From Sphyrna mokarran (Eukaryota), in assembly GCA_024679065.1 (NCBI GenBank), contig JAGIQG010000002.1, positions 121,024,001 through 121,088,000 of the forward strand: DNA of 64,000 nucleotides, in the 5' to 3' direction. Below the pieces are notes generated by a model that had not been told where the DNA came from, searched no databases, and was given only the letters and a program-made list of their open reading frames with translations. The translations under genes and the position numbers were made by a program. Below, piece after piece: positions 11,131 through 52,335 of this stretch. Position 1 is the first letter of the stretch, and each line of letters begins with the position of its first letter.

Positions 11131-12730
11131 AAACAAAGAACAAAGAACAACACTGCACAGGAAACAGGCCCTTTGGCCCAACGAGCCCATGTCGCCATTT
11201 TAACATTATGAGTGCCCTCTTCTATCTATCACCTTTGTCTATGCCTATTGGGGAAGATTGAGGAAAGACTAATTTAGGGACAATTTGTTAACACCAATCA
11301 GTCTAAGAGTATGTTTTTGGGGTGTGGGAAGAAACCAGAACACCCGGAGAAAACCCACGCCAGCACGGGAAGAATGTGCAAACTCCCACAGACACTGGCC
11401 TAAATCCATGTATCTGCACATCAAACAGTGATAGTCACTGAGCTGTCCTGTTGCCCATCAGCTGGTCCAGTTTAAATGTACATTAACGACATGAAGCACT
11501 AGGCAATTCTCGAAGCAACATTTAAGAGCAGCCCTCGCATGACCCACTGCGTGTATGCCCCTTGCTGGACAACAAGGCAGACCAAATTACCTGTGGATTA
11601 AAAGAAAAGACATCAATAAACAGACATTCACGGAATCCCCAGAAGCTCAGAAGTAAGACAAGTGAGCCATAAAATATGTTGGAAGATCCATAGGAATCAA
11701 TTGATTCCCAATGATGTCCCAAGGCTCTTGAAGTTTATTTAGAACAATCTCCTGTATCCCTCCATCTCTAATCCGTTAAGTAAACCTTAAACAACTCTAG
11801 CGTGCCTGCCTCCACCATCTACTTGGCAGTACATTCCAGGCCCCCATAACCCTCTGCATGAAAAACCTCCCTCTAACATCTGAATTATATCTCGCCCCTC
11901 TCACCCTAAGCCCGTGGCCCCTCATAATTTTCGTATCCAAACTGGGATAAGCTTACCACTGTTCATTCTATCTTTACCCTTCATAATCTTGTACACCTCT
12001 ATTAGATCTCCCCTCATTCTCTGTCTTTCTAAGGAGAACAGCCCCAATTTGCCCAATCTCTCCTCATAGCTCAGTCCCTCCATAGCAGGCAGCATCCTGG
12101 TAAACCTCCTCTGCACTCTCTCCAGGGTCTCCACGTCCTTCTGGTAGTAAGGCAACCAGAATTGGATGCAATACTCCAAAGGTGGTCGAACCAACGTTCT
12201 ATATAACTGCAACATTAGATGCCAGCTTTTATACCCTATACCCCTTCGTATAAAGGCAAACATACCATAAGCCTTCTTCGCTGCCTTCTCCATCTGTACT
12301 GCCACCTTCAAGGACTTGTGTACTTGCACCCCCAGGTCTCTCTGCATTTCTATACTCTTAATAGGCCTACCATTTATTGTATAACTTCCCCCTACATTCT
12401 TTCTTCCAAAATGCATCACCTCACATTTTTCTGGATTAAATTCCATCCGCTATTTCTCCGCCCAATATACCAGCCTATGTATATCCTGCTGTATTGTCTG
12501 ACACTGCCCCTCACTATCAGCAGATCCAGTCATCTTTGTGTCCTCTGCAAACTTGCTGATCACATCACTTACTCCTTCTTCCAAGTCATTTATGTATATT
12601 ACAAATAACAAAGATCCCGGTACTGAGTCCTGTGGCACACCAGTAGTTACAGGCCTCTAGCTAGAAAAAGACCCTTCCATTATTACTCTCTGTCTCCTAT
12701 TACCAAGCCAGTTCTCAATCCATCTAGACA
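11131..12730 (-). mobile_element. 5'-truncated CR1 LINE with a SINE-containing 3' UTR (chimeric family, copy 1)
   Basis: RT pieces 12450-12638 (PQDSVPGSLLFVIYINDL, KFAEDTK) and 11922-12446 (FNPEKC, LYRTLVRPPLEY, LERVQRRFTRM). Then a unique spacer, a V-SINE-derived block 11280-11460 and a (TTCTTTG)n tail. Confidence 0.9.
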
Positions 12731-13037
12731 CCTGTCCTTGTAGGTTCCCACGTCTTCAAAAAGATTTATAAAGAACCATGAGAATGTTTAATTCTCTTTA
12801 GCTCCACTCATTTTTAGTGGCATTTATTGGAAAAGGTTGCTTAGATGAGACTGTTCTTGGAATAATGAAATAATCTACTTCCCTCATACCAGTGGGGTCC
12901 TTCTCACTATTCAACAAGGCAAAATTTCTTTGGGACAGTCCATTGTCCATTGCAAGGGGGATCCTTTTTTTTAATTTTGATCATTTTTAGATCGGGCTGC
13001 ACTCTAAAAATGTTGCCCCAGTTTCCTGAAAGCCAAT

Positions 13038-40879: not shown

Positions 40880-42110
40880 CCCACATATGGAGGGCTTTTC
40901 CTAGAAGGAGAGGTTGAGCAGGTTGGGCCTATACTTATTGGAGTTTAGAAGAATAAGAGGTGACCTTATTGAGACATATCGGATTCTCAAGGGGCTTGAC
41001 AAGATAGATGCTGAGAGATTGTTTCCCTTGTAGCAGACTCTAGAACCAGATGACATAATCTCTCAGAATAAGGGGTCATTCTATTTAAGACAGTGATGAA
41101 GAGGAATTTCTTCGGTCAGAAGATGATGAATCTGTGGAATTCTTTCCCCCAAAGGGATGTTGAAGTTGATTTATTAAGTATGTTCAAGGCTGAGATAGAC
41201 AGATTTTTAATCAGTAAAGAAATCAGGAGTTATGGGGATAAGGCAAGAAAGTGGAGTTTAGGATTATCATATCAGATCAGTTATGAGCTTGCTGAATGGT
41301 GGGACAAACTCAGTGGGCTGAATGAATTACTTTTGAACAAAGAACAAAGAACAAAGAACAACACAGCACCCAACGAGCCCGCGCCACCGTCCTAACGTCT
41401 TAATGACATATAGGGACCAATTTGTTACCCAATCAGCCTAAGAGCACATTTTTGGGATGTGGGAGGAAACCGGAGCACCCGGAGAAAACCCACGCAACCA
41501 CGGGGAGAACGCGCAAACTCCCGCAGACACAGGCCCAAATCCATGTGTCTGCACAGCAACAGCGACAGTCCCTGAGCTGTCATGGTGCCCATCAGATGGT
41601 CCAGTATAAGCATACACTAACGACGTGAAGCACTAGGCCACTCCTGAAGCAACACCCAAGAGCAGCTCTCGCACGACCTGCCGCATGCATGCCCTTGTTG
41701 GTCAACAAGGTGGACCAAACATCCTGTGGAAACAAATAGGATATTTAAACAGTCCTACTATATCCCTCTATCTGCAGACCACTCATGTGGCTGTCCAAGA
41801 GACCCTTAAACAACCCTAGCGTGCCTGCTCCCACCATCTTACTCGGTAGTGCATTCCACACCCCCACTACCCTTTGTGTGAAAAACTGCCCTCTAATATT
41901 CGTCTTATACATAGCCCCCCTCACCCTAAGGCCGTGACCCCTTGTTCTATCCTTTTCTAATGGTGGAAAAAGCTTACCACTATTTACTCTATCTATACCC
42001 CTCATAATCTTATATACTTCTAATAGATCCCCTCTCAGCTGACGTCTTTCAAGGGAAAACAACCCCAGTGTGTTCAATCTTTCTTTTGCTGTTACATCTT
42101 ATGGTCTTAG
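40880..42110 (+). mobile_element. CR1 3' fragment hosting the chimeric element
   Basis: RNFFGQKMMNLWNSFP ORF2 end. The tail is split at 41335/42083 (GGGCTGAATGAATTACTTTTG | CTTTTGCTGTTACATCTTATGGTCTTAG). Confidence 0.85.
41336..42082 (-). mobile_element. Chimeric CR1/V-SINE element, copy 2
   Basis: ORF2 C-terminus 41745-42077 (LGLFSLERRQLRGDL...FFTQRVVGVWNALP), spacer, V-SINE block and (TTCTTTG)n tail, all between CTTTTG direct repeats (41330-41335, 42083-42088). Confidence 0.9.
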
Positions 42111-42616: not shown

Positions 42617-42918
42617 AAGTGGCACAGTAGTTAGTACTGCCGCTTCACAGCGCCAGGGACCCAAGTTCAATTCCCGATTCAGGTCACTGACTGTGTGGAG
42701 TCTGCATGTTTTCACTGTATCTGCGTGGGTTTCCTTTGGGTGCTTCCGGTTTTCTCCCACAGCTTGAAAGACACACTGATTAGGTGCATTGGCCACGTTA
42801 AATTCTCTCCCAGTAAACTCGAACAGGCGCTGGAATGTGGCAACTAGGGGATTTTCACAGTAACTTCATTGCAGTGTTAATGTAAATCTACTTGTGACAC
42901 TAATAAATAAATTTAAAA
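42617..42918 (+). mobile_element. V-SINE with alternative tail
   Basis: A/B-box head GTGGCACAGTAGTTAG...GTTCAATTCCC, V-domain, and tail CACAGTAACTTCATTGCAGTGTTAATGTAAATCTACTTGTGACACTAATAAATAAA. Confidence 0.85.
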
Positions 42919-43199
42919 ACCTTTGTAAAGTTGTAAATCAGGAATTCGGGGAGATTGAGACCTTTCTAAATTACAGTCCTTGGATAATATGGGGACAAGT
43001 ACCCTCACTTAAACTGACCTATAGCCCAGAAATGGACTGGGTGACAGACTGAAATTGCGTTATTGTTTTTTAAATGCTGTTTTCAGCCTGGCAGTGTCTT
43101 AAAGTGGGAGATGCTCCTATGGAGACAGGTTTGGTGTTTGTCTGTGGGGGGAGGAGGGGGGAGGGAAATAAAAAGAAACACGAGTCAATTAAAAGAAAG

Positions 43200-43530
43200 G
43201 GAGAGAATACGCCGCCAGGAACAGATGGGCTCTGCTCACCTGAGCTGGCAGCCCGCCGCCGACTGCCTTCCCCCAGGTGAACTGGCACGTGCCGCGCCTT
43301 ACCTGCTCGCCCCGCCCCGCCCCGCCCCGCCCCGCGCGCTCCGCACCTGTCGCCCTCTCTCGCACTGCACGCGCCCCTTTGATGGGCAGGCCCTCGCGTC
43401 AGCTGCTGCTGGGCGGCTTGTGCCTCTCTCACTCACTCCTCACACACGCACACACACAGCGAGCAACAGTTCAACACCAGAGCAGCCAGCAACGCCCATC
43501 AAAGGCTGGCATTGTCTGTCAACCTTCCCT
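43200..43530. promoter_or_regulatory. Small CpG island / candidate Wnt-responsive enhancer or lncRNA promoter
   Basis: GGCACGTGCC 43284-43293, tandem CCCGCC GC boxes 43307-43335, inverted TCF/LEF pair 43376-43387 and 43494-43505. Confidence 0.6.
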
Positions 43531-45860: not shown

Positions 45861-46960
45861 CATGAAAAAAAGTCTCTTAAATTTCTGTTCTATCGCCAAT
45901 TATGTTACACAAATCGCCAGTTTGTGACCTTTGGCTACAACCCTTTTGACAGAGGAAACTGTTACTACTCATTTGAACAAAATCACTCATAATTTTGATT
46001 ACTTCTTTTAGGGGTTTCCTTATTCTTTTCTTTTCTGAACAAGACAATTCCAGATTCTCCATACTCTTTGCATAACGAATATCTATGTTACTATTCTGAT
46101 AGAACTCATCTGTATCCTCTCCAAGGCCTTGACATCCATCCTAAAGTGTGGTACCCAGAATTGTACGTAATATTTCAACTTAGGTCCAGCCAGTAATTTG
46201 TAAAATTTTAACATAAGATACTTGTTTTTGTATTCAATGCTCCTTCCCACTTTCACAAAATCAAGGACCCCGAACACTTACCAATGTTGCCTTACCAATG
46301 TGCCCTGCAACCTTCTAAACATTGTGATTCAGTATTGGCAGGTCACTGTTCTTTCACCCAGTTTGTGACCTTTGGCTACAACCCTTTTGACAGAGGAAAC
46401 TGTTACTACTCATTTGAACAAAATCACTCATAATTTTGATTACTTCTTTTAGGGGTTTCCTTATTCTTTTCTTTTCTGAACAAGACAATTCCAGATTCTC
46501 CATACTCTTTGCATAACGAATATCTATGTTACTATTCTGATAGAACTCATCTGTATCCTCTCCAAGGCCTTGACATCCATCCTAAAGTGTGGTACCCAGA
46601 ATTGTACGTAATATTTCAACTTAGGTCCAGCCAGTAATTTGTAAAATTTTAACATAAGATACTTGTTTTTGTATTCAATGCTCCTTCCCACTTTCACAAA
46701 ATCAAGGACCCCGAACACTTACCAATGTTGCCTTACCAATGTGCCCTGCAACCTTCTAAACATTGTGATTCAGTATTGGCAGGTCACTGTTCTTTCACCC
46801 TCCATTAAAATAGTACCACTTAGATTAGAATACCTCTACATGGTGTTCCTCCTAGGCATCTTGATCAGCACAGATTTGGAAGGCTGAAGGGCCTGTTCCT
46901 GTGCTGTACTTTTCTTTGTTCCTAAAGTGATCACTTCATACTTTTTTTAATTGCCTCTGC
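45860..46960 (-). mobile_element. Decayed CR1 fragment containing a tandem duplication
   Basis: Antisense ORFs IEYKNKYLMLKFYKLLAGPKLKYYVQFWVPHFRMDVKALERIQ at 46083-46277 and 46524-46718. Confidence 0.85.
45917..46800. repeat. Exact 441-bp tandem duplication
   Basis: 45917-46359 equals 46358-46800 by eye, with 2-bp CC microhomology at the junction. The two predicted ORFs are identical and offset by 441. Confidence 0.95.
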
Positions 46961-48275: not shown

Positions 48276-50699
48276 CCTCTTTAACCAACATCTCGAAAAA
48301 ACAGATTATATTGTGATCGCAATGTTGTTTGTGTGGTCAAATTGGCTGTCACCTTTCCTCCTTTAAACCAGCGTGCATGCTTCTTTGGCTGTGGAGTGCT
48401 TTGCGATAGTCCGAGGATTTAAAAGGTAACTCTTTCATTACGACTCGTTTTAATCCCAGTTTTGATGAGAGTATCCTATTTTTACACTCCTCCGCTACCA
48501 TATTCTCCACCGTGACATTTAAATCACGGTGATTTAAATCGTGAAGTCGAGTGACTTCACGATTATGAACTGAATCGACGATGAACTGAAATCGAAGTTG
48601 AATCGAATAAAGACTGGTCAGACGCCGAATGCGCTCCATTTCTAACAAATAACTTCCAACAATCGCATTGTTTTTTTCTCTCGGTGTCGGTTTCATACAG
48701 TCTTCATCGCCCTGTTTGATCTATGCATCTCTGATTAATGTTGCCAACCACATTTCCCACAATGAGATGGCATTTAACAAAGGCCTTTGAAGAAATTCGG
48801 CTCCTCTTTGCGACCTGTGAGCTCCTCTGACAATGGGCCGAAGACCTAAGACCCTAACCCTGAGTACATCCAGCACATTCTGATCGATTTTAGATTCTGT
48901 TCGACGTGTTGCTAACCACATTTTTAGTGAGATTATATGAACTAGACAAGCTATGCGATAAATAAAGCCTGGATATATTGGTTCACACACTGTGTAAACC
49001 TATGAACGTGAGTCAATTCAAATCAGAGCATGTATTTCTCACACCCTGCCCACCATTTGAGATTGTACACTAAACCCTGGAGGACCTGTCGTAGTTCAGG
49101 AGCGTTGTATTTTGTGCGGATCATTGGACCCACTTGATTCTAATATTAACAAATGTCTCCCCTTACGGCCTTTGTATTAAGGTTGGCAGAGAAGGCCACT
49201 TTCGGTTTACAGATAGGATTGGAAGCGGCAGGGTGCAAAATCTTGTTTGTGGGGCTAGGTTTGGGTAAATAGATCTGTTTTTTCCCGCACCATTGGGAAA
49301 ATGTAACCTCTTCCATGAGGTAGAATCTTCGAATGTGTCTAAATCCTCGTACCTGCTCCACCGAGCTGCACACACACACACGCGCCCCTTTTGAAGCGAG
49401 ACTGTGCACATCAAACAAAGCAAACGGGCGAAACGTTGACTGTAACACAGCGATACAGCATAAATTACAACTCATCGTGTATGTGGAAGGAATAGCAGAC
49501 AAACATAGGAAAATATGGAACTGGCAAAATCCAGTGGAAGCTGCTTTTCTGTTTCGTCGGGAGCACAAGGGATCGCTCGCTCACCTTATTTGCCCCCTTG
49601 CCCGAACCAGGACCCACAGCCGCCTGAGAATATACAGGCGCAGTGCCCCCACCTAGCGTCCTGTATTGGAAGCAACGCATGAAGCATTGAAAGACATGTG
49701 TTCAGCCTCTCCAAAATGTCACATTTTGTTGTGCTTTGCGCATATATACAGTACCGTGCGTAATTTAGTTAGCAAATAGCCTGATTTTTAGCTATGGGAA
49801 ATCAAGTATGTGCACAGTGGATGGACGTTTGTTTGTTAGAATTGTAATACTGGGTGATTGTTTTAACGGGGTACCATACATACTAATCTAAAACTGCCAA
49901 TAACATGACATATTATGCATATTTTCGACGACAGGGAGAAAATCATTATTTTATTATTCATTATTTTAGATGTTGCGATAAAAAAGTATTCAGCTTGTTG
50001 TCACCACTGTGCTGCTCCCATAACACTTCCAACAGCTTTCGTTTTAGCCGAACCTATTCTTACACATCCAGTACCTTGTTTTTTTCATCCTACAACTGTC
50101 AATACGGTAGAAGGTGGTCGCCACCCGAATGTGTTTGACGCGCCTCTTTCACCATGCCCAGCCCACATGATGTGCTTCTTATGTCGCGGCCAGCGTTCAT
50201 CCATTTCTCCAGTGGGGTGGAAATGAATAAACCCACAAATGTCGAAGGCAAAGAAGCCTTCATTATTTTTCATTTGATTCATGTAACATAGCACTGTGCT
50301 GCCGAAATGAATCCTGTGCGCGGAAGGGGAGACGTGCGCGGATAAAAAGGCGCACACACCCACACATGTACACATAGAGAGAAAAAAAACTCTCAGTAAT
50401 ATTTTGTGAATTAGCTTCATTCACAGTAGTCTGGCATTCTCGCCGGCGTGAAACTGCAGCGAATCAATCCATCCATACAGTTTCGTGTCAATTGCCCGAA
50501 ACTTACAGCATCAGTCGACTAGCTGCTGGGGTGCGAATGTGTGTGCGAGACACACAGACAGAGAACACTGTGCGTGTGAGTGAGATATAGCACCAGTAAA
50601 GGATTCAGCTGGGTGCTTGATGGGTGTCTGAGTCAGTGGAAATGCCAGTATGGGGAGAAAACGGAAAGGCAGAGTACGGCTTCAACTGAATGCTAACGC

Positions 50700-52335
50700 G
50701 GAGGGAAGGGAGGTGGGGTAGGGAAGGAGAGAGGAGAGGAGCGCTAGTGAAGGATGGAGGGGAGGAAAGGGAGGGGGGGAAGGTCACGAAGGGAAAGGTG
50801 GAGTGGATGGATGGTGCAAAGTGCTCTTGCAGCCACTTAACTTAACCACTTTAAGTTGGTGGGGAGGGAGGGGACGAGGGGTAGTGGATTGGGGGATGGG
50901 CAGGGGTGGTGGATAGAAGGTAATGGCTGGGTAAGTGCATTTGCACTTGATAGGGAGGAAGTGAAAGTTAGGGAGGGAGGAGAGGAGGGATATTGGAGGA
51001 TGGAGTGAAGGGTAGGGAGGTGAGGATAGTGAATGGGGATAGCAGTACTCTACAGCATGGACCCCTTTAAATTGGTAGGTGGATAGTGGATGAGGGAGTA
51101 TCAGATTGAGGTTAGTGCCCGGAGGGGTGGGGGTAGCAGTGCTCTTGCAGACATTCTCCCTTTAAGCTGGTAGATGGATAGGGGGTAAGAGAGAGGGAGT
51201 AGTGGATTGGGGTTAGTACCGGGGGGAGGGGAGTAGTAGTGCTCTGGGATAGTGCCTGGGAGATGGAGGGATAGCAGTGCTCTGGGGTAGTACGGGGGGT
51301 TTGGGGGTAGCAGTGTTCTGCGTAGTGCCTGGAGGCGGGGGGGGGGGGGAGGATAGGAGTGCTTTGGGATAGTGCCGGGGTTGGGGAGGGGGAGTTGGGA
51401 GGTGGGGGGATAGCGATGCTCTAGGGTAGTGCGGCGGGGTTGGGGGTAGCAGCGTTCTGGGGTAGTACCCCTAGGAGGAGGGGATAGCAGTCCTCTGGGT
51501 ACTGCCCGGGGGTGTGTGGGTAACAGTCCTCTGGGTTACTGCCGGGGGGAGGGGGTGTTGGGAGTAGCAGTGCTCTGGAGTAGTGCCGGGAGGGGGAATA
51601 GCAGCCTTCTGGGTACTGCCGGGTGTGTGGGTAACAGTCCTCTGGGTTACTGCCGGGGGGAGGGGGTGTTGGGAGTAGCAGTGCTCTGGAGTAGTGCCGG
51701 GAGGGTTGGAGGGAGCAGCGTTCTGGGGTAGTACCGGGTCGAGAGGATAGCAGTCCTCTGGGTTACTGCCGGGGGTGTGGGGATGTGGGAGTAGCAGCGC
51801 TCTAGAGCAGTACTGGGGAGGGGGGGACAACAGTCTCTGGTTAGTGCCAGGGCGAGTGGGGATGTGGGGTAGCAGCGCTCTGAAGTAGAACTGAGGGAGG
51901 GGGGACAACAGTCCTCTGGGTTAGTGCCAGGGCGAGTGGGGATGTGGGGGTAGCAGCGTTCTGAAGTAGAAGTAGGGGGGGGGGACAGCAGTCCTTTGGG
52001 TTAGTGCCGGGGGGTTGGGGATGTGGGGGTAGCAGCGCTCGGCTAGTGCAGGGGAGGGGGATAGCAGTCCTCTGGGTTAGTGCCTTTGAGGGGGTAGGGG
52101 TAGCAGCGCTCTGGGCTAGTGCAGGGGAGGGGGGATAGCAGTCCTCTGGGTTACTGCCGGCGGGAGTGAGGATGTGGGGGTAGCAGCGCTCTGGGGTAGT
52201 GCAGGGGAGGGGGGGGGGATTGCAGTCCTCTGGGTTACTGCCGGGGGGAGTGGGGATAGCAGCGCTCTGGAGTAGTACTGGGGGATAGCAGTCCTCTGGG
52301 TTAGTGCCTTTGAGGGGGTGGGGTGGTAGCGGCGC
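50700..52335. repeat. G-rich minisatellite upstream of the SOX4 promoter
   Basis: Roughly 30 units of GGG(A/G)TAGCAG(TC/CG/TG)CTCTGGG(T/G)TA(G/C)T(G/A)C separated by G tracts, with higher-order duplications (e.g. 51481-51594 vs 51595-51705). Confidence 0.9.

Follow-up and report, generated by a model that had tools for sequence, protein, structure and literature searches.

In Sphyrna mokarran, one clade of CR1-type LINEs carries the front half of a V-SINE within its 3' untranslated region (UTR), where a tRNA-derived head remnant and a well-preserved V domain lie between the end of ORF2 and the LINE's own tail. Our reading of this block, to which we assign a probability of about 0.6 on the strength of sequence comparisons, is that it may act in cis as an RNA element which source elements are selected to retain, for the sake of transcript stability or ORF2p loading, with the LINE's own stem-loop and repeat still serving for priming. 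The window is the whole stretch of 64,000 nucleotides that was analyzed, and positions are counted from its first letter. The CR1 label of the LINE is our assumption from its architecture, the names HE1, V domain and shark follow the literature, and the central core, which we take to be the published V domain, was compared only with the genome's own free SINE consensus. The two copies of the element in the window have the following parts.

41336-42082, minus strand: V-carrying CR1-type LINE of subfamily A, 5'-truncated copy; 12 substitutions and one 19-nt deletion relative to the subfamily consensus
42083-42088, plus strand: right target-site duplication CTTTTG; the host CR1 tail continues past it
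41745-42082, minus strand: C-terminal remnant of ORF2; stop TAA at 41747-41745, frame open for 111 codons
41724-41744, minus strand: pyrimidine tract with terminal CAG (21 nt), 3' splice site-like; present in every subfamily
41591-41723, minus strand: spacer, 133 nt, without SINE homology; fold prediction gives a long hairpin at ~41693-41609
41530-41590, minus strand: V-SINE tRNA-derived head remnant, 61 nt; B box deleted, A box degenerate
41458-41529, minus strand: V domain core, 72 nt; 64/72 identical to the free SINE consensus
41411-41457, minus strand: additional SINE body, 47 nt; ~68% identical to the free SINE
41387-41410, minus strand: variable linker, 24 nt here (24-82 nt overall); SINE homology undetectable
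41336-41386, minus strand: tail belonging to the LINE itself, with (GTTCTTT)n; this copy has lost the inner stem-loop
41330-41335, plus strand: left target-site duplication CTTTTG, seen in the sequence
11132-12758, minus strand: older of the two window copies, subfamily B; an ORF2 remnant and a pre-spacer segment of 163 nt are followed by the same block and an intact tail

On the minus strand the spacer (41723-41591) is followed by the head, which begins GGGCACCATGAC... (41590-41530), and then by the V domain (41529-41458), and the CTTTTG-flanked unit interrupts the tail of a plus-strand CR1. The original prediction had placed the element at exactly these coordinates and in the order ORF2 end, spacer, head, V domain and tail, and had taken it for one mobile unit of an amplifying LINE lineage; the sequence, the target-site duplications and the copy numbers given below agree with it on each of these points. 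The two window copies are 76-82% alike. The window also contains an exact, 100% identical 441-bp tandem duplication (45917-46800), which is either very recent or an assembly artefact, a G-rich satellite with periods of 36-45 and 80 bp (50691-52323), and degenerate tandem repeats of 51 bp and ~23 bp with many TTTAGG/TTAGGG-like words (58677-59486). On the minus strand at 43230-43420, 1.2 kb from the insertion, a GC-rich segment with GGGGC repeats and a donor-like GCAG/GTAAGG may be a promoter or first exon.

A search of the 2.77-Gb genome with the spacer gave 2176 candidates, 40 of which were scored. ORF2, spacer, head, V domain and tail were continuous in all 30 spacer loci fetched, the window copy among them. 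When the query was instead taken from ORF2, 1.2 kb upstream, all five parts were present at 35 of 40 loci (one with a nested insertion), and the other five comprised two internal deletions and three loci interrupted at other repeats. A spacer-only query, whose 30 loci overlap the first set, gave 28 that extend into ORF2, one with an internal deletion and one 5'-truncated. The spacer is therefore linked to both ORF2 and the V domain, which the original prediction had named as a check. The V domain was likewise present in 30/30 loci of subfamily B (ORF2 end in 28, tail in 28) and in 30/30 of subfamily C (complete set of parts in 23). Target-site duplications of at least 5 nt surround the whole unit in 23/35 copies vs 49/205 mismatched controls, and the combination of 5' truncation with short duplications around the entire unit is that of CR1 LINEs. 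The spacer-head-V block occurs solely in LINE copies or 5'-truncated LINE remnants, with no independent movement marked by duplications of its own.

An identical 5' start in three copies defines an element of ~4.6 kb. ORF2 of a long copy matches PF03372 (Exo_endo_phos), PF14529 and PF00078 (RVT_1) above cut-off, corresponding to an APE endonuclease and a reverse transcriptase, and ORF1 is a 303-codon frame with a weak GDSL-esterase match (PF13472, E 4.6e-5, 24.4 bits, below the cut-off of 32.9). A second proposed check was for full-length copies with both ORFs; a whole open ORF2 was found in none of 40 copies (longest frame, 770 codons). The CR1-type 3' stem-loop and short repeat are present in the element. 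The inner stem-loop (19-20 nt) is absent from three subfamily A copies at unrelated sites, namely the window copy (41336-41386, 19 nt short of the subfamily A consensus), L238 (the same locus as L002) and L236. Two of the three share a substitution found in 6/81 A copies and the third is too short to tell; the pattern could be explained by a source copy without the stem, or by repeated loss of the segment between two GG pairs peculiar to A.

Free V-SINEs with a tRNA-like head, a V domain and a CR1-type stem-loop tail are abundant in the genome and provide the reference for the block. A second abundant V-SINE family has the head and V domain in common with the first and a different tail ending AATAAATAAA; it is found at 42620-42920 of the window and at many random loci, and accounts for 24/79 V matches. 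The V domain of the window copy aligns to the free SINE consensus with a score that 0/200 shuffles reach, and across subfamilies the identity is 64-67/72. The head is more eroded. In the window copy it is collinear with the free V-SINE consensus and identical at 37/61 positions, and across subfamilies the identity to the free SINE head is 60-69%. An 18-nt deletion has removed the B box, the A box is also off consensus and a tRNA-like fold is not called; the free SINE retains both boxes. The head alignment score was reached by 10 (A), 2 (B), 47 (C) and 241 (D) of 1000 shuffles, and a head-only profile placed B above all 300 shuffles and A near the 99th percentile, with C and the window copy unmatched. 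Taken by itself, the head match is therefore modest, being significant for B, marginal for A and not significant for C, D or the window copy. We assign the head because it adjoins the V domain and because it is 92-95% identical among A, B and C. The original prediction had described an eroded tRNA head without a B box, a lost Pol III promoter and a retained V domain, and all three descriptions hold, both boxes failing in the head remnant.

The position of the block is clearest by comparison with the V-less sister family, whose UTR of ~65 nt consists of the stop, GAAGCATGAG-CGGCGCAGGC, a stem-loop and the GTTCTTT repeat; the V-carrying UTR measures ~410-610 nt. Subfamily C reads GATCATGAG-C(insert)CGGCGCGGGC...GTTCTTT, with GATCATGAGC after the stop, CGGCGCGGGC ahead of the sister-type stem-loop, and the block in between. 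The original prediction held that the LINE had captured a whole V-SINE, by read-through or a switch of template, and had adopted the SINE tail as its own 3' end. "Whole" is an overstatement, as SINE homology stops ~47 nt past the V domain. The claim about the terminus did not survive comparison of the tails. The final 26 nt match the sister LINE at 24/26 positions and the free SINE at 16-17 (17/23), and a LINE-type tail was found in 0/109 free V-SINE copies with a head. A genome-wide pattern of SINE-type stem with LINE-type continuation gave three matches, two SINEs ending SINE-like and one B-type LINE copy, and hence no free SINE with a GTTCTTT end, although this pattern was ungapped and could pass over rare donors. 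It could also be that a donor SINE bearing a tail of sister type has died out, and the tail's 5' half (28 nt) resembles the SINE (22/28) nearly as much as it does the sister LINE (23/28), so that a crossover perhaps took place within the shared stem. Upstream, a search past the stop codon for traces of an earlier tail gave no significant match (194 and 421 of 1000 shuffles were as good), and alignment detected no SINE homology in the linker or spacer. Because of the sister-type last 26 nt, the absence of such tails among the 109 SINEs and the pattern result, a SINE-derived terminus is not supported; we consider this route largely contradicted and improbable. Judged from these junctions, a better fit appears to be an event inside the UTR, either an insertion or a switch of template.

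The V block marks one clade with at least four subfamilies (A, B, C and D). Copies lie 2.0% from the consensus in A (34 best matches, hence biased low), and 7.7% and 2.8% in B and C (30 best matches each); D is represented by 4 copies only. An exact subfamily A 21-mer occurs 530 times in the genome. Forty evenly spaced 10-kb stretches (400 kb) contained 7 spacer copies, 6 with upstream ORF2 and 1 truncated inside the spacer, and extrapolation from these 7 gives a genome-wide estimate of ~48,000 copies (Poisson range ~20,000-100,000). Five equal-scoring subfamily C copies (L221, L222, L223, L224 and L227), located on four other contigs at low coordinates and two of them 2.9 kb apart, may belong to a tandem array or duplicated segment. 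The subfamily D copies L029, L069, L140 and L149 end in GCTGTGTTGCTCT and an A run, with no microsatellite; poly-A tails within the CR1 group are called unique to Zenon in PMC13343379.

A tree was built from 225 nt of the ORF2 end, with 93 rows. Fifteen V-carrying rows came from 14 chosen loci, and the V-less rows were those of 88 with full length and a recognizable tail. The V-carrying rows form a single clade (support 100/99) that sits inside the V-less CR1s, and the rows closest to it are three V-less ones (89/89). This indicates one gain of the block; the sister family has the V domain in 0/30 copies. A and D are sisters by ORF2 and have derived letters in the block in common. Three subfamily A copies (L053, L070 and L130) contain younger, nested V-less CR1 fragments, which places activity of V-less families later than that of A or at the same time. 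The nesting of the clade also contradicts the reverse direction of transfer, in which the V domain arose in the LINE UTR and was borrowed by the SINE. Kojima does propose that a LINE origin is possible for SINE bodies (PMC5786205), but the LINE carries a tRNA-head remnant, and V-SINEs range from vertebrates to cnidarians according to PMC4824008. We give the reverse direction next to no credence, and the SINE-to-LINE direction of the original prediction stands.

A possible function of the block is suggested by its conservation. Identities were calculated between the consensus sequences of A, B and C, with 45-47 fourfold ORF2 sites as reference (36-50 over all comparisons). The V domain is 94-99% identical among the three, the head 92-95%, the post-V segment 83-93%, the tail 96-98% and the spacer 81-87%, against 67-77% at fourfold sites and 58-71% in the linker. 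When one D copy is added, the values are 90-96% (V), 84-89% (head), 66-78% (spacer) and 64-82% (fourfold sites), and with that single copy included the spacer is no better conserved than fourfold sites. Slow decay of the V domain after insertion explains only little of this excess: non-CpG decay was 0.008/0.063/0.017 in V vs 0.012/0.075/0.028 in ORF2, i.e. 16-39% slower, which is too small a difference, and CpG decay was alike. Since the rates are of similar order, the V domain is no strong cold spot. The identity of head and V above that of fourfold sites points to selection on an RNA element.

The same conservation could be apparent rather than real if the block were a neutral passenger, a nested insertion hitch-hiking in a successful source and kept uniform by 3' module exchange or conversion against SINE copies. 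Possible donors are plentiful (~68 SINE-borne V matches per 400 kb), LINE and SINE V domains are 89-93% alike, and MER6 offers a case of a headless V-SINE riding passively in another element (PMC6887750). We regard this as unlikely, for the head remnant is strongly conserved among subfamilies though merely 60-69% SINE-like, the linker and the pre-spacer segment on either side of the block vary freely, and the ORF2 sisters A and D share derived letters within it.

Folding predictions give the spacer hairpin z-scores of -4.05 (A), -1.54 (B), -4.2 (C) and -3.34 (D), and short hairpins in the head and V domain. All four subfamilies are predicted to form a 9-bp helix between the head and the start of the V domain, a fold other than the one predicted for the free SINE. 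Covariation is weak: the consensus fold of the four subfamilies has 28 variable pairs, of which 14 are disrupted in one subfamily or more, and in most of the remaining variable pairs the change is confined to one side. An Rfam search, the spacer included, gave nothing at threshold and one chance-level match (mir-3569, 17.4 bits vs 50).

In A, B, C and D alike the conserved block starts with the pyrimidine-CAG/G motif (41724-41744 and 11591-11615 in the window), which is retained despite an upstream length that ranges between 21 and 163 nt (60-140 nt lost or replaced). If it were a working splice acceptor, the block would be a terminal exon and the structure would serve a spliced, ORF2-less RNA. 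The retention of the motif and three copies that start at the junction or one base earlier would suit such an exon. Spliced retrocopies, with a 5' UTR donor joined to the acceptor, gave 0 matches, however, and foreign sequence at the junction pattern was present in 2/530 A copies, both with an unrelated repeat upstream, which is about as expected from 5' truncation. Among the 15 joints listed of 26 in four public contig sets, none had splice-type ends at the motif. We therefore think a terminal exon very improbable. The public runs gave six rows with small shares (0.07-0.20), all contigs; on the ORF2-to-head stretch the four contig sets covered all 30 bins, and one contig bridges the ORF2 end and the spacer. 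These contigs show relatives under other organism labels, and expression, strand and splicing are outside their scope.

Under the preferred reading of a cis-acting RNA element, a single insertion or a reverse-transcriptase template switch would have put a SINE-containing transcript piece at CATGAG^CGGCGC in a sister-type source element. The Pol III boxes would subsequently have been lost, and this loss was likely favoured because an internal promoter placed before the tail of the LINE would give rise to a short parasite RNA and thus to a competitor for ORF2p. Selection on source elements would then have preserved the head remnant and V domain, with RNA stability or ORF2p/RNP loading as the most likely benefit. 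Priming would have stayed with the LINE's own stem-loop and repeat; such tail stem-loops are described as essential in zebrafish L2 elements in PMC4176376. The block is not a requirement, given that CR1 families lacking V do well in this genome. A bolder version, which we put forward tentatively, is that the LINE took over its parasite's V domain for use as a cis RNA element and turned the defunct tRNA head into a helix partner for it. The V domain would thus serve retrotransposition, not the host or Pol III, and the block may even replace the tail stem-loop, as the three stem-less copies hint.

The pair of elements closest in build is HE1 and HER1: Ogiwara (1999 and 2002) reportedly described the HE1 V-SINE and the HER1 LINE, with the SINE borrowing the LINE tail. 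This V-SINE and CR1-type LINE pair of sharks and rays is tabulated in PMC3747384. The tRNA-like head, V domain and CR1-type stem-loop tail are as in HE1/HER1, a likeness of build, but here the front half of the SINE, promoter-less, resides inside the UTR of an autonomous LINE. The nearest precedent is the MER6/MER6A MITE, in which a nested, headless Ac1-like V-SINE without a working head had its V domain spread by the carrier. As described in PMC6887750, that carrier is a non-autonomous DNA transposon, long inactive and moving without an RNA step, whereas the present carrier is a recently active autonomous LINE with the V domain in the copied RNA and conserved across subfamilies. The LINE resembles canonical vertebrate CR1s (PMC13343379) in its esterase-like ORF1 (the match here being weak), APE and RT domains of ORF2, 5' truncation, short target-site duplications and repeat tail, and differs in its long UTR with a SINE-derived block and in the A run of subfamily D. 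Exchange of modules between LINEs and SINEs is mentioned in passing in PMC5786205, which notes SINE-like pieces in LINEs: RTE-1_DAn carries a tRNA-like sequence, and the 5' UTR of Ingi-3_AC has a possible Ceph-SINE sequence. The main text of this comparison, which spans Repbase, mentions no CR1 with a V domain in its 3' UTR and says that the source of conserved bodies was not found. Our literature search, with subscription papers and repeat libraries outside its scope, turned up no CR1 UTR described as holding a V-SINE block. A family so abundant probably has an entry in de novo libraries already, even if its chimeric nature is not annotated there.

The reasons proposed for the conservation of SINE cores such as V, which spans hundreds of millions of years, are interaction with the LINE, a recombination hot spot and benefit to the host, and PMC5499810 treats the question as open. 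In the LINE described here the V domain is freed from Pol III transcription and placed within an autonomous element, and the V-less sister with the same tail is a natural control with which the effect of the domain in cis could be tested cleanly in a conventional retrotransposition reporter. For annotation, about 7/75 V-domain matches in the 400-kb random sample are LINE UTRs rather than SINEs.
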